64,000 nt of DNA from contig OY760686.1 of the NCBI GenBank assembly GCA_963663865.1, forward strand, positions 2,400,001 to 2,464,000. The letters are read 5' to 3'. Below, one piece after another: positions 18,156-64,000 of the stretch. The stretch's first letter is position 1; each line of letters starts with the position of its first letter. This DNA comes from Spirochaetota bacterium (GTDB lineage: Bacteria > Spirochaetota > UBA4802 > UBA5550). The notes under the pieces were generated by a model. That model ran no database searches and had not been told where the DNA came from. It was given only the letters and a program-made list of their open reading frames with translations. Position numbers and translations under genes: made by a program.

Positions 18156-20159
18156 ATGAAATCAATTAGAACAAAGATGATCGTGCTTTTTGGACTCTCA
18201 ATGTTTGTGCTCATGTCCCTTACGGCCGCTGTCATAGTCTATCGTGTAAATTCAACTTTCATTCCCTATGCGGAGGAATCGGCAGGAAGGATCGGCGAAG
18301 CTCGTTCTGATGAAATTGGAGAACTGCTCAATAGTTACATGAGAGAAATCAAGTCTCTTTCGAAGCTTGATGCTTTCATATCAGGTAATATAAATACCGC
18401 TAAAGACTTATTCAAAAACATTACACAGGATTATAACAGTGATTTTGACTACCTCATATATGCCATCCCTTCCGGAAGGTTGGTTACCAGCCTCCTGGCA
18501 GAAACGGATGTAACTGACAGGGATTATTTCAAGGCAATAATTGTTGAAGGAAAGGATTCATTTACGAGTATGCCGGCAATCTCTAGAACAACAAAACGTC
18601 AGGTGTTTTATGTGGTATCATCAGTCAAAAACGCAGCTGGAAAAACCGTTGCTCTTCTCGGCGCAACGGTGAAACTTGATACTTTGACACAAATCGCTTC
18701 CAGAATCAAAATCGGGGAAGCCGGTTACGGGTGGCTTGCTGACGGGACAGGTTTAATGATAGCCCACCCTGACAAGAAAGCGATTATGAAACTCAATTTA
18801 TTAAAAGCTTCAGATTTCGGATACGTTAATCTTGATTCTGTCGGCAAAAACATTGTGAACGGCAAACAGGGTATTTCAAATATCGTTTTGCCCGACGGAA
18901 GAAAGGCTGTAACCATTTACAACCCTGTCAAAAACTCTCCAAACTGGTCGCTTGGTATAACAATACCCAGATCAGAGCTGTTATCCAGAGGCTATTCTCT
19001 TCTTAACACCATCCTTATAATTATCTCTATTATTATCGCATGTGTTATTGCTGTTATACTGATTCTGGCTAAATACATTTCAGACCCTTTAAGAGCATCT
19101 GCCGAACACATTGAACGGATTGGTAACGGAGACTTAACAATTACAGTCAGTGAGAAGTCAATGAGCTTCCAGGATGAACTGGGCATAATCTCAAGAGCCA
19201 TCAGCAAAACCGTTTCGTCAATCAAAACCATGATTGAGAATGTCCAGGTTCACGCCTCAGAGCTGACAGATTCATCCCGCGAAATGAAAAACACAGCTGT
19301 CTCATTCGCGGACAATGCGCAGAATTCTGCTTCAGCGCTGGAAGAACTCACAGCTGCCGTTGAAGAAATCTCGGCGGGTATGGACTCTGTTACTGCAAAC
19401 GCCGATGTCCAGACATATAAACTGAATGAGCTGATGAGCAAGATGGAAAACCTTACTTCAGTAGTCAGCAAAATGGGCGAGTTAATTAATGGGGCTCTTG
19501 AAAGAGGAAAAGACATTTCCAGAATGTCCGGAGAGGGGGCACTTGTACTGGAAGCAATGAACAAATCAATGGCCGCCATCACGGAAAGTTCAGGAGACAT
19601 GGTAAGCATTATAAAAATCATCAATGATATCTCTGAGCAGATAAATCTCCTGTCTTTGAACGCAGCAATCGAAGCTGCCAGGGCCGGAGAAGCCGGTCGC
19701 GGATTCGCTGTAGTTGCAGATGAAATCTCAAAACTTGCGGACCAGACCTCGCTCAGTCTGAAAGACATCGACAGGCTTATCAAGGAAAACGGGGAAGAAA
19801 TCAACCGAGGGAAGGAAACGATTGAGATTACCACAAGTACAATTCGCTCAATTACCGGTGCGATTGATTCTATCACAGCAAATATCGGCATGATATCAGA
19901 GCAGATGGATATTCAGACTGCTATTTATGGTGAAGTCCAAAATGGAGCAGGTTTTGTTAAATACAGTTCAGAAGAGATAACAAACTCTATGGGTGAACAA
20001 AAAACAGCGATGAGAGAAATAATGCAGTCTGTAGCCGACATAAACGATACAACTCAGCAAAACGCCGCGGGGGCCGAGGAGATGTCCGGCTCAATGGAGA
20101 ATCTTTCTTCGCTTGCAGTGAAGCTTTACCAGGAATTAGGCATTTTCAAGGTTAAGTAA
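18156..20159 (+). CDS. Methyl-accepting chemotaxis protein with dCache sensor
   Basis: 2 TM; DRDYF and IGEAGYGWL...IAHPD Cache motifs; HAMP; [30 protein letters not shown]. Confidence 0.93.
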
Positions 20160-20340: not shown

Positions 20341-23300
20341 CTATTCAACTTCACTAACAAACTCGTAATTGCCCGATTCCAGCTCAATAACAACACATCC
20401 ATTTTCAAACCCTTTCACAGCAAGGCCTTCAGTTTTTGAAAGTGATCTGCCGCTTTCCTTAACATCATCCTGAGACAGAGCAGGCAGGTACAACGTCGCC
20501 GAAGTATTAGCCGGAACAGACACATTGTATTTAAAGTCAGTGCCATCAAGCTCCCATGCTGACTCAATAGTACCATACATGGAGTCATAATGACCTTTCG
20601 CGTATGTCATATCACCCCCGAATTTGGGCTGCAATATGAAATGCTTGAAACCGGGACTGTCCTCATCACGCCGAATTCCGAGAGAATAATTATACATCCA
20701 TGCCCCTATAGCACCCAGAGAATAGTGATTAAAGGAATTCATTCCATTATTTCCTCCGAAGCCGTCCTCAACTGTATAGGAGTTCCATCTTTCCCAAATT
20801 GAGGTCGCACCATTTATTACGGGATAGAGCCATGAAGGATAATCCGTTGATTCAAGAAGCCTGTAGGCAGTATCGTCATATCCATAAGCGCTCAAGGCCG
20901 GACATAGAGGCCCTGTCCCTATAAAACCCGTTGTAACAATATAGCCAATATCCTCGCTCACTTCTGCAAGTCTTCCTGCCGCAGCTGTTGCATGCTCGTC
21001 ACTGAACATCCCATATGATAATGGCAGTGAATATGAAGCCTGAGTATCCTGCACGGTTCCGTCATATGCCCGCGTAATATGCGCATCCGTTACGTACAGC
21101 TCATTCCACTCTGACTTAATATTATTAAAAAGAGCAGCGTATATTTCCGCATCAGACGACTCACCCATTGCACCGGCCATTTTAGACATGCAGTTTACCA
21201 TAAAACCATATATGGCCTCTCCCAGCATCTCAGTATCAGTCGATACATAGGAGAGATGGTCTCCAAGCATTCCAGTCTGGCCTGTCATATACTCTGTGCC
21301 CGGTTTCACATTTGCTCCGAGATAATCAATAAATGTTTTCATTGAGCTGTAATGGCTCCTGATCAGCTGAATATCATTATACTGCTGGTAGAGCTCCCAC
21401 GGGATAATCACTCCGGCAGCAGACCATGCCAGACCAAGTGAAAATGATGATCCATAACTCGGTGCATATGATGGATACATATTATTCTGATCATCCCTCA
21501 GGATTCTAATATAATGCCTGAAAAACTGGTCAACATTGGCATTAAAAGTAGCAGTTCGGGCAAAAACCTGCGCGTCACCTGACCAGCCCATCCTCTCATC
21601 CCGCTGAGGACAGTCAGTAGGAATACTCAGAAAATTTCCCTTCTGTGAGCGCAGAATATTTCTGTAAAGCTGGTTAACATCGGGATTTGAGCACTCATAG
21701 TTTCCAGTTAGGCTGTCGACAGAGCTTAATACTATACCCTGCACATCCGATACAGGCAGAGGAGAATCTATTCCGGTTATTTCCAAATACCTGTAACCAT
21801 GGAAGGTAAACCTCGGGTTATAGGTTTCCCCAGACAAACCTCCTTTCATTATGTACGTATCAGTCGAAAGGGCCGCCCTCAAATTTTCAGTGAGTATCAT
21901 CCCCACCATGCTCTCACCGTTCATGTCCTGATACTCAGAAAGGTCAGGATACGTTATCTCAGCCGTTCTGAACACAACTTTTGTGCCCGCGTCACCCTGG
22001 AGTGTAACCCTTGGGACTCCTACCATATTCACGCCCATGTCATAGACGTATACACCGGGTCTTGGTTCAGTATATGACCTGGCGCTTATAACCTCAATTT
22101 CCTTTACCGCGTTTCCTATCTGTGATACAATTTCAGGATCAGCTGTCGACCCAACAAGAACAGACTCCCCCCACGCACTGTCATCAAAACCCGCTTCTGA
22201 CCAGCCGCTTATCGCGGCCTCTTTTCTCGCATCGTAGTTCTCTCCGCTAAAAAGTGAAGCATATGTAACGGGGCCGTCTCCATAATACTTCCAGTCCCCT
22301 TCCTTTGAAACAATGATATCAGAAGCTCCACTCTCATAGTTGATGAGAAGTTTAATCTTAACTGACTGTCTCGCTCCGAAATAGTTATAGTTAGTGAGAG
22401 TATATGTCATCTGATCGCTGAACCAGCCGGAAGACAGAACAGCACCAACTGCATTTTCACCACTTACAATCAAATCAGTTAAATCGTAGGTCTGATAGGT
22501 TATGTGCCTGTTAAAGTCGTCACTACCGGGAGCTAACCAGTCAGAACCGGCCTTTTCTCCATTTATATACAGCTCATAGATGCCGCGGCTGCAAACATAA
22601 GCTCTGGCGCTCTTTATTCCGCTTCCGGCTGTAAAGCCCTTTCTGAGCATTGGACACGATGTATGACTCGGATCTTCATAAAACATAACGCCAGAACTGC
22701 CGCCGTCAATGGAAAGTGAGCCATTTGCAACAGATACTGCGCTTCCATCCACATGTGATGAAAAAATCCCATTATATCCGGAATTATACTCCTCTGAAAA
22801 TACTACTGCTTCCGGTTGCCCATACTCCTCAACTCTGAGCCCGCTGAACACCGCCAGCTGAGATGCATCAACAGAGAACCCTATATTGTTAAGCCTCGGG
22901 TAACATGGTACATCCTGTATAGCGTTAAGAGGATTCAATGTCCTTCCGCTGAGCGTTGTTCCTCCCCAGCCAGTTGTTTCCTGACCATCAACAAGTGTAC
23001 CGTCAATATATGCAATAACGCTGTTTCCGGGACATACAAGCCTGAATGTATGAGACTGATTTGCATTCGTGCTGTTAATAACTGAAGAAGGAATATCAAC
23101 ACTCCCAATCGGCAATGATTCATTGACCGCACCGAGGAGAGAATCAGGACCGTATCCAACCCTGTAAATATTGAGCTTTGCGGCATCCGGATCAGTAATA
23201 TCAAGTTCATACTTGATGTAGTTCTCTCCTTCAATACTGTAGTTATTCTTATTTCTGTCAAGAAGCCGTGGATCTGCTGCTCCAAAAACAAAACCGGCCC

Positions 23301-23865
23301 TGGTTGAACCTGCATTGATAACCATGCTATACTGTATTGTAAACACCGGTTTTGATGCAGCATTGAAGACATATTCATCCCCTCCAATCCATTCAGCATC
23401 GCTCCAATTTTCAACTCCGTCAGTACTCATCAAACCTGTTTCGAACCATGAAGTAGAAGACAGCTTTTTGCCGTCGCTGTCTGTAACAGTCACTGTCCAG
23501 TTATATTTGGATGATGGTTTGAGACCCAGCCCCGAATAAGGAATCCCAAGCGAAATATCGCCCGAAACAACACCGCTGTTCCATATCTCCTCACCACCGT
23601 CTTCAACGACTACAATCTGGTAGTCAGTCTGACTGTATCCTCTCTGCCCGGCAGGTGCGGCAATCTGCCAGCTGAAAAGTGGACTATTGGAATCAACACC
23701 AAGCGGTATTTCCGTATAATCGACCATCATTTTCTCAACTGAGCCTGTCTTTCTGCTCTTTGAATCAGAACTGCACCCGACCACAACAAGCAACATCAAC
23801 ACTGCCATAGTCGAAAAAGCGGGCATCAACTTTCTTATAAACATCTTAAACTGCAGTAACATCAT
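20341..23865 (-). CDS. Alpha-L-rhamnosidase, GH78, predicted lipoprotein
   Basis: IPTDCPQRDERMGWSGD, FTFHGYRY, GATSIWERWN, MNSFNHYSLG; lipobox VVG-C; start moved to ATG 23865 after AGGAGG. Confidence 0.92.
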   Translation of the reverse strand: MMLLQFKMFIRKLMPAFSTMAVLMLLVVVGCSSDSKSRKTGSVEKMMVDYTEIPLGVDSNSPLFSWQIAAPAGQRGYSQTDYQIVVVEDGGEEIWNSGVVSGDISLGIPYSGLGLKPSSKYNWTVTVTDSDGKKLSSTSWFETGLMSTDGVENWSDAEWIGGDEYVFNAASKPVFTIQYSMVINAGSTRAGFVFGAADPRLLDRNKNNYSIEGENYIKYELDITDPDAAKLNIYRVGYGPDSLLGAVNESLPIGSVDIPSSVINSTNANQSHTFRLVCPGNSVIAYIDGTLVDGQETTGWGGTTLSGRTLNPLNAIQDVPCYPRLNNIGFSVDASQLAVFSGLRVEEYGQPEAVVFSEEYNSGYNGIFSSHVDGSAVSVANGSLSIDGGSSGVMFYEDPSHTSCPMLRKGFTAGSGIKSARAYVCSRGIYELYINGEKAGSDWLAPGSDDFNRHITYQTYDLTDLIVSGENAVGAVLSSGWFSDQMTYTLTNYNYFGARQSVKIKLLINYESGASDIIVSKEGDWKYYGDGPVTYASLFSGENYDARKEAAISGWSEAGFDDSAWGESVLVGSTADPEIVSQIGNAVKEIEVISARSYTEPRPGVYVYDMGVNMVGVPRVTLQGDAGTKVVFRTAEITYPDLSEYQDMNGESMVGMILTENLRAALSTDTYIMKGGLSGETYNPRFTFHGYRYLEITGIDSPLPVSDVQGIVLSSVDSLTGNYECSNPDVNQLYRNILRSQKGNFLSIPTDCPQRDERMGWSGDAQVFARTATFNANVDQFFRHYIRILRDDQNNMYPSYAPSYGSSFSLGLAWSAAGVIIPWELYQQYNDIQLIRSHYSSMKTFIDYLGANVKPGTEYMTGQTGMLGDHLSYVSTDTEMLGEAIYGFMVNCMSKMAGAMGESSDAEIYAALFNNIKSEWNELYVTDAHITRAYDGTVQDTQASYSLPLSYGMFSDEHATAAAGRLAEVSEDIGYIVTTGFIGTGPLCPALSAYGYDDTAYRLLESTDYPSWLYPVINGATSIWERWNSYTVEDGFGGNNGMNSFNHYSLGAIGAWMYNYSLGIRRDEDSPGFKHFILQPKFGGDMTYAKGHYDSMYGTIESAWELDGTDFKYNVSVPANTSATLYLPALSQDDVKESGRSLSKTEGLAVKGFENGCVVIELESGNYEFVSEVE

Positions 23866-24106
23866 AAACTCCTCCTTGTTTTTTTTGAGGAGAAGCCTAA
23901 CACAGGTCATTCAGGTAATGCTATCCATTCAAAGATAAACTGAATTCGGGAGCCTTTCATTTCAAGACTTCTACAGATAAGACATATTAATAGCCTTGGA
24001 GAAAGGAATATCGTTGATTTTTAAATAAACTCGGGTAATATTATCAATAATGACTTTGTTTATTCAACTTCAACATTCGTAGATTACTTATTTCCCGGGT
24101 AATATA

Positions 24107-25279
24107 ATGGCACATAGGATTCTTTTAATCTCAATACTGTCACTACTCTCATTGTCAGCTGTAATGCTTATCAATGTGCTTAATAAAACTAATGATAATG
24201 TCGATCAAACCAATCCTCAAAAACCATTGATTTACTATATTAACTTTTTTAAATCCAATAGCTCTCTGATAGAGAAATCTAAATCCCCTGAAAAATTAAA
24301 CTTCAGAAAATTTTTTTCATACTTTAAAACATTCAAAGAATTCACAATATCAGCAGCTAAAGACCTGGGATACGATATAGAGTTTATAAACATTAACCCT
24401 GATAGGATGGACGATGAGCTTAATGACTACCTCACCTTGAGAAAACCTGAAGGCATAATATTCGGCGGGATTTTTTACAACTCTGCATCTATACTTGAAT
24501 ATCTTGAAAAACGTAGAATTCCTTCAATAGTTCTGAACGGACCTCCCCATGGCTATTCCGGCCATCCCCGGGAAAAATACAAGTACTGGATAGCAGCTAT
24601 TAATCCTGATGAATACAGCGCAGGATATGAACTAGGCAAATTGCTGATCAGGCGGGCAAATAAAATAATATCGAACAGAGAAAAAGATATTCATATTTTA
24701 GCCTTTATGTCTGACTATAAACCACTTGAACAGCGACTGACCGGTCTTGTTGCTGCAGTTTCTGAATCACAAGATGCAGTCATAGACCAGGTTGTAGACC
24801 TATCTTTCCCATCACACGAAGATGTTAAGAGTAAATTTATCTACATGAAAAAATACAGATACCCGGGTGTTAACATCGTCTGGTGCTTCTCCGATACCAC
24901 AGCGCTTGCTGTCCTTGATGGCGCCAGAGAACTGGGACTGACACCAGGCAAAGACATTCTGATTGGAGGAATTGACTGGATTGAAGATGCAACAATCGAA
25001 ATTAGAAATGGGACAATTGAAGCCAGTATGGGAGGGCAGTTGGCCATCGGAGCCTGGGCTGTAATTTTAATCCATGACTACACCCATAAAAAAGATTTTT
25101 TTAGTGAACAAACTGAATTCAAAATAAAGATGTACGCTGCCGAAAAATCGAATATTGACAGTTTTTGTGTTATAAAGAACAAAAACTGGAGTAAAATCAA
25201 CTTTAAAAAATTTTCAAAAGTACTCAACCCTGAATTGGTGAAATATAATTTTGATATTCTTGCAATAACTTGTGAATAG
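24107..25279 (+). CDS. Periplasmic-binding-protein type 1 (sugar-binding-like) with N-terminal anchor
   Basis: YKYWIAAINPDEYSAGYELG, VWCFSDTTALAV, GKDILIGGIDW, SMGGQ; AT-rich. Confidence 0.8.
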   Translation: MAHRILLISILSLLSLSAVMLINVLNKTNDNVDQTNPQKPLIYYINFFKSNSSLIEKSKSPEKLNFRKFFSYFKTFKEFTISAAKDLGYDIEFININPDRMDDELNDYLTLRKPEGIIFGGIFYNSASILEYLEKRRIPSIVLNGPPHGYSGHPREKYKYWIAAINPDEYSAGYELGKLLIRRANKIISNREKDIHILAFMSDYKPLEQRLTGLVAAVSESQDAVIDQVVDLSFPSHEDVKSKFIYMKKYRYPGVNIVWCFSDTTALAVLDGARELGLTPGKDILIGGIDWIEDATIEIRNGTIEASMGGQLAIGAWAVILIHDYTHKKDFFSEQTEFKIKMYAAEKSNIDSFCVIKNKNWSKINFKKFSKVLNPELVKYNFDILAITCE

Positions 25280-25292
25280 AAGTACTGGAACA

Positions 25293-26408
25293 ATGCAAAA
25301 CAATTATATTCAGAAATTCATACTTGTATCTGCCGTCCTTATAATTTCAGGCGCCGCGATTATTATTTACTCATGCAAAAAAAACAATGAAACTGATTTC
25401 GATTCGCTCCGGGAAAGAGCTGAAAAGCTGACAGATGAAATCATTCTCTCAATGGGCAGCAATCCTTTTGACAAACTCGAAATAGATAAGGCATTCTATA
25501 ACAATACTGATATTAGTGAAATAATCATAAGGAATAACAGTGGAGCCATTGTCGCTAAGTATTCAAAGATAATGGACTATCAGAATTTCTGCGACATTGA
25601 AAAAGAGATTAAGAAACATGGCACTCTTGTGGGAAACCTCAGACTGAAGCTTACCGACCACAGCTTTTTTATGGAATGCCAGAAAACAGCCGACCGCATT
25701 GTCACAGCTAATAGCGATAACGTCAGCAACTACAACATGAATGATTTGAAATCTTCAGCAAATGTTTTCTTCAAAGACAAAAATATAAAAAAACTGCATA
25801 TTAAAGATATCTATGCCAATACGTTTATCGATCTTAACAGAGAAGCAGAGCCTGTGCAAGGTTCTATTGACATAAGGAGAGCTTTTTATCACAATGGATT
25901 TAGGACTGCCGAACTTCTTGTATCATTCTCAGATATCTCTGAAACTGAATCTGGCAAGTCTGGTAGTTCTATTTTAATCATAGTTATCTTCATGCTGCTT
26001 ATAATCGGAGCAATTATTGTTTTTTTAAATTATCGGACCTTTAAAGACACAAAACCATATCTTACCGAAAAGAGTAAAATAATATCTGCCGATTCAAAAG
26101 AAAAAATCGAATCTGCGATTGAATATATCAAACACAATTACAACAGAAGCATCAGTCGGGAGGGACTTGCCTGCATGGTTTCAATCAATCCTGATTACCT
26201 GGGCAAACTCTTCAAACAGTATACCGGCCTGCGGCTCAACGACTACATCAACAAGCTCAGAATTGAAAACGCGGCTGTTCTATTGAAATCGACCGGAAAA
26301 ACTATAACAGAGATTGCCTTTGAGGTCGGCTTTGACAGTATGAGTACTTTTTACAGGATTTTTTCTGCATTAGAAAAAACTACTCCTAAAGACTTCAGGG
26401 AAAAATAA
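25293..26408 (+). CDS. Transmembrane AraC-family regulator with two periplasmic sensor repeats
   Basis: Two hydrophobic segments; C-terminal AraC HTH (INPDYLGKLFKQYTG, LRIENA, ITEIAFEVGFDSMSTFYRIF); alternative start GTG 25272. Confidence 0.85.
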   Translation: MQNNYIQKFILVSAVLIISGAAIIIYSCKKNNETDFDSLRERAEKLTDEIILSMGSNPFDKLEIDKAFYNNTDISEIIIRNNSGAIVAKYSKIMDYQNFCDIEKEIKKHGTLVGNLRLKLTDHSFFMECQKTADRIVTANSDNVSNYNMNDLKSSANVFFKDKNIKKLHIKDIYANTFIDLNREAEPVQGSIDIRRAFYHNGFRTAELLVSFSDISETESGKSGSSILIIVIFMLLIIGAIIVFLNYRTFKDTKPYLTEKSKIISADSKEKIESAIEYIKHNYNRSISREGLACMVSINPDYLGKLFKQYTGLRLNDYINKLRIENAAVLLKSTGKTITEIAFEVGFDSMSTFYRIFSALEKTTPKDFREK

Positions 26409-26559
26409 GATGATTTAATGAAAGAACATAGTACACCTTTGATTAACAGACCGCTGGAAAAGCAGGAGACAATTCGTACTTGTTCCATATTAAAACCATT
26501 TACATGCATCCTGTAAACACACATAATATATGCGAGATTAATGAATGATCCTTCATTAA

Positions 26560-28152
26560 TTATCTGTCAAATTTTTCATTCAATTTAAAATTATTAATCA
26601 ATGACATAAGTTCCTGTGATAGGTTATGCATTTCTCTGCTTGCATAGGCCGTGTTTTCGGCCAGTAGTGAATTCTGCTGTGTCATTGAATCCATGCCGTT
26701 AATCAAGATGTTTATCTGGTTAATCCCTTCCTTTTCCTCGAAGCTTGCGGCAGAAATTTCGGAAATAAGGTCCGACACGTTACTGATAGCCGATACTATT
26801 TCGATAAGAGAATCACTGCTTTTGCTGGCAAGCGTCACTCCCTTTTCGACTTTATGCAAAGAGTCATTAATCAGTGTTTCTATCTCTTTCGATGCGTTTT
26901 TTGAACTTTGTGCCAGAGTCCTGACTTCTCTCGCAACGATAGCAAATCCCCTTCCGTGTTCCCCGGCTCTTGCAGCCTCAATTGCAGCATTAAGTGCAAG
27001 AAGATTTGTTTGAAAAGTTATTTCGTTGATAACGCCGACAATCTCAGCAATTTTTTTGCTTGAATCCTTTATTTCTATGATGGCGTCAACTGCCTCTTCA
27101 ACAATTCTTCGTCCTTCATTTGCAATATTCGAAGTTTTCAAAGATACTTCTTTTGCCGTTTGGGCATTGTTTGCTGTTTCAGAAATTGTCCTGGCTGTCT
27201 GTTCGATTGTAGATGCAATTTCTTCCAGGTAGGCAGCCTCTTCCGACGAGCGTTTTGAAAGGTCTCTTGTCCCGTCCGAAATACTTTCAGTACTTGATGT
27301 TATTTTTCGAGCTGTTAAAAAGGATTGAACAACAAGATCGTGAATTTCCGTTACAAATCCGTTAAAGTAGCCGGCCATTTCTCCAATTTCGTCATTCGAT
27401 TTTGATTCCATATGCGCGGTGAGGTCGCCCTTCGCACCCCTGAGCAGAAGGATTAATGCGTTAATCGGCCTGAGTATTTTTCTTTTAAGAATCTTTCCGA
27501 AAATGATATTTATTATAACAATTATTAAGACAGAAGATGCAAGAAGGATGGAAATCAGTTTTTCGGTTTGGGCTATTTCATTTTTTACGATGTTGATTGT
27601 TGTTTTTTTTGAATATATAGAGTTGGAAATAAAGCCTTTAAGTTTTTTCAAGCTGTGATCAACATGAAGGTTAAAATGACGTATCGCCTTACCCTGATCC
27701 CCGTTTCTATACAGGTTAATACACCTGACTATATTGGTCCTTATTTCCAGTATGACCGGTTCATTTTCGGTAGCGAACGAGATATCCTCAGCAATGCTGT
27801 ATTTTTCGGCTGTATTCTTGTATTCTTCAAAAACGGAAAAAATATTCTCATTTCTGGCAAAAAGCTCGGATATTAAATCGTTTTTTCTGTTGTAAATAAT
27901 GTTCAGAATTTCCGCTCCTGATTCACTCAACAGACTGTTGAGCTGCAGGGATGCCTGGTTCTGATCATTATATTTATTCAGAAGGTTATTCTTTTTATCC
28001 AGGATGCCGTAGAAAACGAGCATTGCAGCAATCAGCACAAAAATGTAAAAAATATTGATTACGTAGATAGTAGTTATTTTCCTGTCTATTACCCTTCTGG
28101 CTTTGTTTGCCTTCTCCGCTTTTTCTTTATTTTTCTTCTTTTTCTTTTTCAT
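26560..28152 (-). CDS. Methyl-accepting chemotaxis protein with helical periplasmic domain
   Basis: 2 TM; [12 protein letters not shown]; [32 protein letters not shown]. Confidence 0.92.
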
Positions 28153-61608: not shown

Positions 61609-63261
61609 TTATTTTACAACAAAGAAGTCTACTTTTGATTTAAGTCCTTCAGCTATGGTGTTAATCTCACCCGCGCTGTTAGAAAGCTGATCTGCGTTGC
61701 TGGCGTTCTCCTGGGTCATTGTACTGATGCTGTTTACCGAAGTAACAATCTCGTCAATTGAAAGCTTCTGTTCATCGGTTGCTGTTTTAATCTCGACTGA
61801 TTTTGTCTTAACGATCTCCGCCTGCTTGCTAACAAAATTACCGGTTTCAATCTGTTTCTGCATAGCTCCAAAAGTGAGGTCAATCTTGTCGCTGATTTTA
61901 TTGACTCCAGAAATGATGATGCCGGTATTTGCGACCGTGCTCTGCACGCTCTTCATACCCTTTTGTATCTCATTATCGTTCTCTTTAATGATCTTGACGA
62001 TATCCTTGATACTCGCGGCTGTTTCATCAGCAAGTTTTGTGATCTCATCTGAAACAACTGCAAATCCGCGTCCAGCGTCTCCAGCTCTTGCGGCCTCAAT
62101 AGCGGCGTTAAGGGACAGCAGGTTTATCTGCTCAGAGATATCGCTTATAATATTTACAATGCCCGTCATGACCTTGGAGCTTTCACCAATTCGAGTCATA
62201 CTCTGACTCATCAAATCAAGTGAACTCTCGGCTTCTTTAACATTGTCTGAGATGTTTCTTGTCTCCTGCTGGACATCGCCTATCATCTCGTTCATTTCTG
62301 AATTGTATCTGGATAGATCCTGAATGCGTTCAATAAGCATATTTAGGTTTACAAGCTGATCTTCAGCGCCTTCCACAACATTCTTGACCCTGACAGCCAT
62401 ATTCTCAATACCGGAGTTTATTTCCTCAGAGGACGCAGCCTGATTCTGAGCATTGTCCGAGAATGAGACCGAAGCAACATGCATCTCTTCAATTGAATGA
62501 ATCAGTTTTGCGGATACGAACTTAACATCACGAATAACATCGATAATTCTGACAGTAAACTCGTTGAAACTGTAAACAAGCCGGACTATTTCATCCTTTA
62601 TGCTTGCGTAATTTATAGTGTCCGAGATTGCTGATGAAATTGACATATCCATACTGTTGTCGCCGTCAATAGTCAGATCACCCTGTGTTATCTTGTTGAC
62701 CTTGGAAACAAGGAATGGAATAGGTTCAAATACTATCTTGGAAATCCATGTTATCGTCAGAGCTATCAGCACAAAAACGACGCAGGCCATTATAAACATT
62801 TTGTTTCTGACACTCGTAAGGGCCGCCTCACGGTGATAATCGGTAAAGGTCACCTCAAGCGTTCCGATTTTGATATCATCCATAACGAATTCACGTTTAA
62901 CAGATATGTCGTTGGATCCCTTAATTTTCTTTGTCAGGTTAACAAGCTCAATACCGCTTCCTTCCTTAATGTTGATTCTCGTTATATCAGGGTCGGAGAA
63001 AAAGGACTTACAAATGCTTTCCATCGCTCCCACTTCATACTGCCAGAGGTTATTCATATTTGAAGCGATAATAAGATTTGTGAACCTTTCAGTTTTGTCC
63101 TTTAAATCCTTTGTATCCTTGCCCCTCATGCTGCCTGTAATAAAGAGCGTAAAAATCAGGAAAGATGCAAACACTACCATAATGGTAGGTATCATGATTT
63201 TGTTTTTAAGTGTCATCTTGTAAAGGTACTGATGAAACTTAATCCATAGCTTGTTGTTCAT
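61609..63261 (-). CDS. Methyl-accepting chemotaxis protein with small single-Cache-like periplasmic domain
   Basis: 2 TM; HAMP; [30 protein letters not shown]. Confidence 0.92.
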
Positions 63262-63290: not shown

Positions 63291-63998
63291 TTACTGTATC
63301 TGATTAAGTATCATATTAATACTGAAATTATATCTGCCAAGACCCCTGTTAAAGGCCTTTGAAAAGCGCTTAAAGTCAATCTGACCCCAGTTCTCCTTCG
63401 ACAATTTCCTGGTGTAAAGATTTGCAGTGTATCTGTTTATCTCTGCCATTTTTGAATTCTGAACTACTCCTTCGGATGCGAAGTCCGCTCCGTTAAAATA
63501 GTCATAAATCATTATTGCTGCCCAGGCCCCTTCCATAAAGTGTCCGCCGAGGCTGACATTCATATCACCTTCGCCCACACTTTTGAAACCGTCCTGGCTC
63601 CAGTCGATACCTCCCGTTACAACATCTGCGCCGGGCTTAAATCCGAGTTTTTTACAGCCCTGCACAACTCCGACTGAAATCGAATCACTTGCCGCCCACA
63701 CTGCTGTGGTTTCAGGATAACGGCTTCTCTTAAACAAATCAAACTTCTGCTCAGCCACTGCTGAGGACCAGTCAGTGTTAAATATCTGTTTCAAATCTAC
63801 ACGAGGGTTATTCTTTACTGCTCTCTTCAATCCTTTAACCCTTTCAATCGAGGCTCCGTCAGCAATATTGCCTGCAAGAGCAACCATCTCGATTTTGCCT
63901 TCCCTGTTTCTTCCGGCATTTTGCATAAGAATATTGGCAAGCCGATATCCCGCCTCTTCGTCGTCAGGTGTAATCTGCCCAATCCAGTACTTGTACTT
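63291..63998 (-). CDS. Periplasmic-binding-protein type 1, paralogue of 24107..25279 (5' part outside window)
   Basis: Frame open to the window edge ([21 protein letters not shown]); [39 protein letters not shown]. Confidence 0.85.
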
Positions 63999-64000
63999 CT

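Follow-up and report, generated by a model that had tools for sequence, protein, structure and literature searches.

A transporter-less sugar-binding protein and a two-repeat membrane AraC-type regulator as a putative sensing cassette in a Spirochaetota bacterium

In the genome of a Spirochaetota bacterium (GenBank assembly GCA_963663865.1, lineage UBA4802, UBA5550; completeness 98.24%, single contig OY760686.1 of 3.16 Mb) we analysed a stretch of 64,000 nucleotides (the window; bases 2400001-2464000, 45.9% G+C), in which the gene of a sugar-binding protein, SBP1, overlaps the gene of a membrane-bound regulator of the AraC family, AraC1. With a probability of roughly 0.65, the two constitute a sensing cassette, in which loaded SBP1 (SBP, solute-binding protein) docks on AraC1 and switches the regulator. 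The support obtained in silico comes from homology, gene adjacency, the lack of a transporter, the fold of a periplasmic domain of about 86 amino acids (aa) and a predicted interface. An initial annotation of the window had interpreted the pair as a dedicated receptor plus docking domain, a view which the in silico data support, and its span of 24107-26408 fits the two genes exactly. The elements of the pair are as follows (window coordinates):

24107-25279, plus strand: SBP1, Peripla_BP_4 sugar-binding protein, 390 aa (Pfam, 40.1 bits)
25272-26408, plus strand: AraC1, two-pass transmembrane AraC-family regulator, 378 aa (Pfam, hydropathy)
25317-25373, plus strand: predicted membrane helix 1 of AraC1, residues 16-34 (hydropathy window 2.48)
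25416-25658, plus strand: repeat 1 of AraC1, residues 49-129, degenerate copy without the W-x-Y loop (hidden Markov model (HMM), i-E 4.1e-18)
25674-25934, plus strand: repeat 2 of AraC1, residues 135-221, canonical copy (HMM, i-E 3.5e-23)
25971-26027, plus strand: predicted membrane helix 2 of AraC1, residues 234-252 (hydropathy window 3.61)
26166-26402, plus strand: cytoplasmic AraC/XylS DNA-binding domain of AraC1, residues 299-377 (HTH_18, HTH_AraC)

The start of AraC1 overlaps the stop of SBP1 by 8 nt, and the N-terminus of SBP1 is a hydrophobic signal or anchor. AraC1 unites membrane helices and a DNA-binding domain in one chain, the helix-turn-helix (HTH) part following helix 2 in a topology which, as for all membrane helices reported here, was predicted from hydropathy windows. 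The Pfam scores for HTH_18 (6.9e-20, 71.6 bits) and HTH_AraC (1.1e-10, 41.8 bits) can be read against cut-offs of 33.6 and 26.6 bits, respectively (35.1 bits for Peripla_BP_4, 34.6 bits for MCPsignal), and the double HTH of the AraC/XylS family is present. By Pfam, no classical cytoplasmic N-terminal ligand-binding/dimerisation domain of AraC proteins was detected in AraC1, whose N-terminal 250 residues consist of helix 1, the periplasmic loop and helix 2, and neither HisKA nor HATPase_c nor receiver domains were found in the SBP1-AraC1 pair.

The same building blocks recur at the end of the window, where they are joined to a chemoreceptor (MCP, methyl-accepting chemotaxis protein), and a second regulator of the AraC1 type lies beyond it (coordinates continued past the window end):

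61609-63261, minus strand: MCP chemoreceptor, 550 aa (MCPsignal 2.1e-27, 96.5 bits)
63291-64000, minus strand: SBP2, binding protein, the C-terminal two thirds lying in the window (Peripla_BP_4, 54.0 bits, partial)
71782-73053, same strand as SBP2: AraC2, second two-repeat membrane AraC, without a binding protein of its own (HMM)

Full-length SBP2 has 368 aa and reaches 64397, past the window end, and its gene lies 29 nt upstream of the MCP gene. The two binding proteins had been annotated as paralogues, and indeed SBP1 and SBP2 (63291-63998) are 36% identical over 232 residues (E 6e-49), all the motifs quoted at that time (KYKYWI, GGIDW, S(M/L)GG, GAWA, FK.FSK...YNF) being present in both translations. 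A matching periplasmic domain downstream of each binding protein was likewise recovered: in BLASTP, the periplasmic stretch of the MCP matches repeat 2 of AraC1 at E 1e-7 and repeat 1 at E 2e-5, and the HMM places the single copy of the MCP at residues 56-141 (62839-63096; 1.8e-27), with predicted helices on either side (residues 22-40 and 148-166). This HMM, seeded with three repeats (the two of AraC1 and the one of the MCP), was iterated over the 7197 open reading frames (ORFs) of the genome and converged on 25 domains; given its scores and only 14 matching proteins, the match is well beyond chance, and the periplasmic domains are homologous by profile comparison.

Searching the same 7197 ORFs with phmmer revealed 14 paralogues of the binding protein in the genome, and the 14 receptors bearing the 25 domains comprise 13 membrane AraC proteins and the one MCP. 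Two repeats are found in eleven of the AraC proteins and a single repeat in another, the thirteenth being a seemingly broken 290-aa form; all intact ones are ordered helix, loop, helix, HTH. For 13 of the 14 receptors a binding-protein gene is located directly upstream on the same strand, the two genes overlapping by up to 16 nt or lying up to 139 nt apart; AraC2 is the sole receptor without such a gene. Domain matches at E <= 1e-5 were obtained in 8 of 41 related genomes (own genome included), 25 in our genome and 1-5 in the others, and 5 of 301 genomes of the phylum carry the domain at E <= 1e-8, with at most 18 candidates scored per genome. From these match counts it follows that, among the genomes searched, the dozen cassettes are an expansion specific to this lineage. 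The distances among binding proteins and those among canonical repeats correlate over 13 pairs (Mantel r 0.41, p 0.007), which shows that the cassettes duplicated as units and does not constitute independent evidence of contact.

In the neighbourhood of the cassettes (Pfam scans of 107 ORFs), GH3 genes adjoin four pairs as well as AraC2, carboxylesterases adjoin two pairs, and other neighbours include a sulfatase with its radical-SAM maturase and esterase-like EstA_Ig_like proteins; altogether, a GH3, GH78, carboxylesterase, sulfatase or esterase-like gene is the immediate neighbour of 9 of the 12 AraC pairs (GH, glycoside hydrolase family). A separate set of a kinase and a receiver-AraC protein was not found among the neighbours of the 12 AraC pairs. 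Two irregular members of the family should also be mentioned. An orphan binding protein (L005:11013-12146, genome 760013-761146) has flavodoxin and DUF2023 genes next to it and no receptor. The broken AraC protein (L003:10550-11730, genome 695550-696730, minus strand) consists of a 122-aa ORF overlapping by about 60 nt a 290-aa ORF, which carries one repeat, helix 2 and the HTH; a frameshift in the gene or an error of sequencing may account for this.

The periplasmic domain itself is not covered by Pfam above cut-off, neither in the 25 repeats nor in 15 full receptors scanned. Below the cut-offs, the 25 repeats touch CHASE8 (two repeats, best E 0.0049), CHASE5 (three, 0.012) and LapD_MoxY_N (one, 0.069), and in the 15 receptors nothing covers the domain at E <= 0.05 save stray SMP_2 and dCache_1 fragments. 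Neighbours in the protein Atlas belong to CHASE8, LapD_MoxY_N, sCache_4 and CHASE5 clusters (scores 0.90-0.91), which is of lead-level value only, and the repeat profile has no significant match among the sequences of solved structures, 4u64 being the best relevant one at E 0.046. A word-indexed search with the AraC1 loop returned just two proteins, the AraC1 fragment and an 83%-identical protein, because the family is too diverged for this type of search.

AlphaFold2, given an alignment of 22 rows, modelled the 199 residues of the AraC1 loop at a mean pLDDT of 82.1 and a pTM of 0.75, each modelled repeat comprising one long and one short helix together with four antiparallel strands. Among solved structures the best match to the model is the periplasmic output domain of CdgS9, an orthologue of LapD (4u64; Foldseek E 3.9e-4, target TM 0.62), which also was found in a search independent of Foldseek (Z 12.9, root-mean-square deviation 3.0, 110 residues aligned). 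It is followed in Foldseek by tandem-Cache sensors with poor superposition, and in the second search by single sCache and PAS/PDC sensor domains (Z 8-10) and LuxQ (3c38, Z 8.0). Values of Z near 8 are common by that tool's own remark, and thus 4u64 alone stands out among solved folds. Strands 2 and 3 of the four-stranded model follow one another without intervening helices; at this site PDC sensors have their ligand pocket, and we read the absence as favouring docking over direct ligand binding, as far as the model can be trusted. The domain is accordingly predicted to be a reduced PAS/PDC unit, nearest to the LapD-type periplasmic domain.

Within the family, an L-W-x-Y-N loop is conspicuous; of 22 aligned tandem proteins, 19 have the W and 19 the Y. 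At the W position (HMM position 18), 97% of 138 single-repeat receptors have an aromatic residue, as do 80% of 20 second repeats and 20% of 20 first repeats. Judged by this pattern, repeat 2 is the canonical unit, equivalent to the single copy of the MCP, and repeat 1 a degenerate duplicate. In AraC2, the W-x-Y motif is absent from both repeats. Loss of the motif was considered as a mark of receptors without a partner, which fits AraC2; it was discarded, since two AraC proteins of genome G037 and a protein of genome G004 keep the motif without an adjacent binding protein.

A complex, as a docking domain implies, is indeed predicted: SBP1 (residues 31-390) together with the AraC1 loop scored 0.70, 0.64 and 0.70 against 0.00 for each of three controls (best control 0.00), with 100% contact agreement between runs and a partner pLDDT of 81. 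In the calibration of this score, 116 of 157 solved complexes came up to this mark, as did 2 of 215 mismatched pairs. On the side of AraC1, all predicted contacts fall in repeat 2 (D149, S152-N157, D179, Y181, N183, H207, N208, T212); residues 152-157 are the family L-W-x-Y-N loop, and the interface takes in this loop and strand turns of the repeat. On the side of SBP1, the predicted contacts are Q228, V230-S233, D239, S242, K243, Y246, M247, Y250 and R251, of which the Q, K and R residues are near-invariant in the family (0.95 each). Conservation of the SBP1 face as such was dropped as support for docking, the patch being not significantly above other windows.

An importer-like ABC (ATP-binding cassette) ATPase was not detected by motif scan within 10 kb of any of the 14 SBP paralogues; two matches turned out to be a carboxylesterase false positive and an ABC-F gene. 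The latter, a double ATPase encoded on the opposite strand, is the sole ABC-like gene near locus 2, the locus of SBP2 and the MCP. The absence of an ABC transporter, which the initial annotation had stated for both loci within the window, thus extends past position 64000, where none accompanies SBP2, and no paralogue is part of an ABC operon. No cognate BPD_transp_2 permease with an ABC ATPase, as expected for CUT2 uptake proteins, was found, and the CUT2 permease family PF02653 has 0 matches genome-wide (control positive in 12 of 14 genomes), yet the genome encodes at least 15 class I (Peripla_BP_4) binding proteins. In the 30 loci of the SBP family in other organisms, just two ATPase-like ORFs were noticed, one resembling an ABC-F or exporter type and the other an HlyD-linked exporter. 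Solved binding proteins of the ribose, YtfQ and allose transporters are weakly matched by the SBP family (profile E 1e-14 to 1e-21), which would suit ordinary uptake components whose transporter is encoded elsewhere, adjacency reflecting operon organisation only; with no permease in the genome and no ABC ATPase/permease set near the 14 loci, such a function is very improbable. By sequence, the one solved member of the family is 3h75, a 'Periplasmic sugar-binding domain protein', which carries the family motifs (profile E 9.8e-60; SBP1 phmmer E 2.1e-20). Much more distant are 2x7x, a fructose sensor of Bacteroides (1.8e-15), and XylFII (5xsj, 3.7e-8). Another binding protein, of a different Peripla_BP_4 subfamily (128.2 bits), is encoded together with a 564-aa MCP lacking the 86-aa domain (L007:9105-11824, genome 2258105-2260824, minus strand), this pair directly adjoining an SBP-AraC cassette; given that the genome has no CUT2 permease, this binding protein may also be sensor-only.

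How the cassette might work can be sketched from the gene next to SBP1 and the spacer between them:

20341-23910, minus strand: GH78 alpha-L-rhamnosidase, 1189 aa, with a lipoprotein-type signal (..VVVGC) (Bac_rhamnosid6H 2.3e-97 and four further rhamnosidase domains)
23911-24106, no strand: divergent GH78/SBP1 intergenic spacer, 196 bp, candidate operator (repeat scan)

The GH78 gene is divergent from SBP1 and, by its position alone, is likely the regulated target of AraC1. The spacer contains two exact copies of CGGGTAATAT (24032-24041 and 24096-24105, 64 bp apart), the second adjoining the start codon of SBP1; a third element, at 23911-23928, is a 78% match to the longer 18-mer. No further exact copy of CGGGTAATAT occurs in the 64-kb window, and with at most one mismatch 10 matches were counted versus 2.87 expected. 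We consider the two copies a candidate AraC1 operator. Scans of 23800-26700 for sigma-70 promoters and terminators gave results no better than shuffled sequences. Two chemoreceptors flank locus 1, at 18156-20159 (dCache_1-HAMP) and 26560-28152 (HAMP-only), neither of them with the 86-aa domain.

In the proposed sequence of events, the exported GH78 lipoprotein would release rhamnose or rhamnose-containing fragments, and SBP1, serving no transporter, would bind the released sugar, probably L-rhamnose or a rhamnose-containing fragment. Once loaded with sugar, SBP1 would dock on the second repeat in the periplasmic loop of AraC1 and alter the pairing or conformation of the membrane-bound protein, dimerisation being a conceivable switch, whereupon the cytoplasmic domain would switch on the GH78 gene from its divergent promoter and probably also the operon of AraC1 itself. 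SBP2, in turn, would feed the MCP and is probably specific for glucose or a beta-glucoside, a guess based on its neighbours: upstream on the same strand follow a glucokinase, an MFS transporter (major facilitator superfamily), a protein of 400 aa that no Pfam family matches, a GH3 gene and then AraC2. A kinship between the 400-aa porin-like proteins near the two loci was also considered and rejected, no relation being detectable.

The sign of regulation could also be the opposite one. In Vibrio, a chitin-binding protein (CBP) is reported to hold ChiS inactive until sugar binding, and by this precedent the unloaded SBP would keep AraC1 inactive and the sugar would release it; the 1:1 model was built without a ligand, yet scored high. 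AraC2, having neither its own SBP nor the W-x-Y motif, would then be constitutively active, which is possible, and on the whole we judge this version to be a minor contender. An equally small share of probability goes to direct sensing, in which the AraC1 repeats bind the inducer themselves in a Cache/PDC-like manner and the SBP is co-expressed for capture, buffering or chaperoning. It would leave a transporter-less SBP without another obvious job, and it is at odds with the presence of an SBP gene upstream of 13 of 14 receptors, often in overlapping reading frames, with the lack of PDC pocket helices in the model, with a nearest fold that is a LapD-type periplasmic output domain, of a kind that docks a protein, and with the predicted SBP1-AraC1 complex. 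What speaks for it is the PAS/PDC class of the fold, with its many ligand-binding sensor domains at Z 8-10, the existence of domain proteins without an adjacent binding protein, and TfoS, a membrane AraC protein which appears to sense chitin oligosaccharides and for which the available text reports no binding-protein partner (PMC3903286).

Docking of loaded SBP1 on AraC1 nevertheless has to be weighed against a number of observations that count against it. The complex was predicted from our own shallow alignments (19 and 22 rows), for which the calibration is only rough, and likeness to solved complexes such as LuxP-LuxQ may explain part of the pass. The predicted interface is small (18-21 contacts) and involves a single SBP1 stretch, 228-251, whose conservation (0.544 versus a mean of 0.484) is equalled or exceeded by 32% of same-shaped windows; in the model, the interface does not by itself explain how sugar loading would be read out. 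In AraC1 itself, Ser replaces the family W, Tyr being kept. Domain proteins do occur without a partner: AraC2 lacks a family binding protein of its own, genome G037 has two adjoining two-repeat AraC proteins without one, a 740-aa domain protein in genome G004 has none nearby, and for a 509-aa domain protein of Teredinibacter none was found within 6 kb. Conversely, in 22 of the 30 SBP loci no adjacent sensor was found, the neighbours being annotated in part. Finally, the distances of the binding proteins correlate also with those of the HTH domains (r 0.35, p 0.04), so the signal may reflect joint duplication alone, and nearest neighbours in the binding-protein and repeat trees agree in just 3 of 13 cases.

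Outside our genome, pairing of the two components was nonetheless observed repeatedly. Among related genomes, G024 has an SBP, a two-repeat AraC protein and an 807-aa ORF in this order; G015 contains an SBP followed by a two-repeat AraC protein and, separately, a GH3-size ORF, an SBP and a single-repeat receptor of 555 aa; in G037 an SBP precedes a single-repeat receptor of 566 aa. A scan for the SBP family across phyla, with one genome per species, returned 30 loci with partly annotated neighbours in Spirochaetota, Gamma-, Alpha- and Deltaproteobacteria, SAR324, Myxococcota, Kiritimatiellia and Comamonadaceae, and in 8 of them a sensor gene is directly adjacent: an AraC protein and a single-repeat receptor (L029), an MCP (L031), hybrid kinases (L033, L035, L046, L038), a dCache kinase with a LuxR-type regulator (L032) and two hybrid kinases (L034). 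The records in which the SBP-family gene abuts a hybrid kinase include Kiritimatiellia, SAR324 and Comamonadaceae, and the L031 record, from another spirochaete, repeats the synteny of locus 2 (GH3, unknown, MFS, glucokinase, SBP, MCP). The repeat profile of our own genome (A1) gave 1 match only in five distant genomes bearing the binding protein, and a broader profile built from public matches was needed; the latter recognised 6 of the 309 ORFs of the 30 loci, all six adjoining the binding protein, and it also missed the kinase of L046. In one gammaproteobacterial metagenome-assembled genome (L050:520-7699), six SBP paralogues follow one another head to tail, and neither a receptor nor a transporter adjoins them.

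Against 1.84 billion representative public proteins, the 25-repeat profile produced 332 matches at E <= 1e-3, 35 at <= 1e-10 and 9 at <= 1e-30, from which it can be concluded that the domain is rare. Pfam was applied to the best 97 of 150 listed matches, and among these 97 the most common outputs were MCPsignal (30), histidine kinases, mostly hybrid (21), and AraC HTH_18, two-repeat forms included (17), beside HD_5 of HD-GYP type (3), GGDEF-EAL (2) and SpoIIE phosphatase (2). HAMP only was found in 2, GAF only in 1 and PAS only in 1 protein, and 18, many of them short fragments, contained no family at E <= 1e-9. Proteins with a single repeat have it at roughly residues 45-140, with HAMP next where shown. 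Different outputs behind the one domain, noted initially for the two loci of the window, are thus found in public proteins as well.

A broader proposition stands about evenly between acceptance and rejection: that the 86-aa unit is an undescribed periplasmic docking domain which, in several phyla, links transporter-less SBPs of the 3h75 subfamily with six or more kinds of output, that its AraC form is a direct route from an SBP to a transcription factor without phosphorelay, and that in this organism a dozen cassettes make up the main glycan-sensing network, one of them rewired to chemotaxis. If true, an SBP switching a membrane AraC protein directly would connect a sugar outside the cell with a promoter by the shortest route possible, and a function would be given to a Pfam-less domain of hundreds of receptors as well as to the solved, yet unassigned, 3h75 family. 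The dozen cassettes beside different enzyme genes would be a natural specificity panel, which could be mined for sugar biosensors and for the rules of cognate pairing, and they suggest how spirochaetes control glycan degradation without the systems of Bacteroides or clostridia.

Among known systems, LuxP-LuxQ, to which the cassette had initially been likened, shares with it the transporter-less class I SBP encoded beside a receptor with two tandem PAS-like periplasmic units. At the structural level the analogy fits, since the units here are likewise tandem and PAS-like and show no obvious ligand pocket; among solved folds, though, the nearest is of LapD type, LuxQ being a middling match (3c38, Z 8.0; 2hje at Foldseek rank 44). 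Furthermore, the units described here have about 86 aa and four strands, no sequence relation to LuxQ was detected, the predicted contact is on repeat 2 only, and the output is a DNA-binding AraC domain without phosphorelay rather than a hybrid histidine kinase, although kinase-linked members of the domain family exist elsewhere. LapD and the CHASE8 protein YfiN hold the periplasmic proteins LapG and YfiR, respectively, by a domain of the kind to which 4u64, our best structural match, belongs and of which weak sequence echoes (CHASE8, CHASE5, LapD_MoxY_N) were seen; the sequence matches are far below the family cut-offs, and the partner here is an SBP, with signalling directed inward. Delivery of a signal to a membrane receptor by a periplasmic partner is also familiar from Tar with the maltose-binding protein and from Trg with the ribose- and galactose/glucose-binding proteins (Tar-MBP, Trg-RBP/GGBP), whereas Tar and Trg have four-helix-bundle domains and their binding proteins also serve transporters. 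The BT1754-type hybrid systems of Bacteroides, whose sensor domain 2x7x is matched by the SBP profile at 1.8e-15, fuse an SBP-like sensor, kinase, receiver and AraC domain in one protein; here, the SBP has its own gene and there is neither kinase nor receiver.

An AraC-type output for sugar or glycan utilisation, under the control of a non-transport SBP, is also known from clostridial XylFII-LytS-YesN and CuaD-type systems (as far as described in the available parts of PMC10384115 and PMC8050422). These three-component systems proceed via a histidine kinase and an AraC response regulator (PMC10384115, available text), both lacking in SBP1-AraC1, and XylFII is only distant kin of the SBP family (5xsj E 3.7e-8 versus E 9.8e-60 for 3h75). 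In ToxR-ToxS and VtrA-VtrC, a periplasmic partner is directly coupled to a membrane-bound transcription factor (PMC9214523, PMC10269533, in the parts available); ToxR-type regulators have winged-helix domains, and their partners are not solute-binding proteins. A 2021 review lists chemoreceptors, kinases, cyclic-di-GMP enzymes and Ser/Thr kinases as signalling partners of SBPs, and in its accessible text the terms 'one-component', 'transcriptional regulator' and 'ToxR' do not occur (PMC8050422). Transmembrane regulators are enriched in Spirochaetota according to a survey whose main text, in the portion available, does not contain the word AraC, and whose supplements may list such proteins (PMC10269533).

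The initial annotation knew of no described transmembrane AraC version with a tandem duplication; transmembrane AraC proteins as such were already on record. TfoS of Vibrio cholerae is a studied example, activated from the periplasm, for which a dimerisation model was proposed (PMC3903286), and in Saccharophagus degradans 16 of 31 AraC regulators are membrane-bound, 13 of them paralogues and several located beside cellulases (PMC2386152), both as given in the available text. Membrane anchoring, a periplasmic sensing part and the connection to polysaccharide-related genes are common to these proteins and AraC1; compared by description, TfoS has one large periplasmic domain with no SBP partner reported in the accessible account (PMC3903286), and the Saccharophagus paper, as far as available, names no binding proteins (PMC2386152). 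The literature searched, thin in subscription journals, yielded no description of an SBP-coupled membrane AraC protein, of a tandem-repeat form or of the 86-aa domain. Our best reading, with binding predicted from models, is that the cassette represents SBP-dependent transmembrane sensing with a direct AraC output and an uncatalogued domain family.

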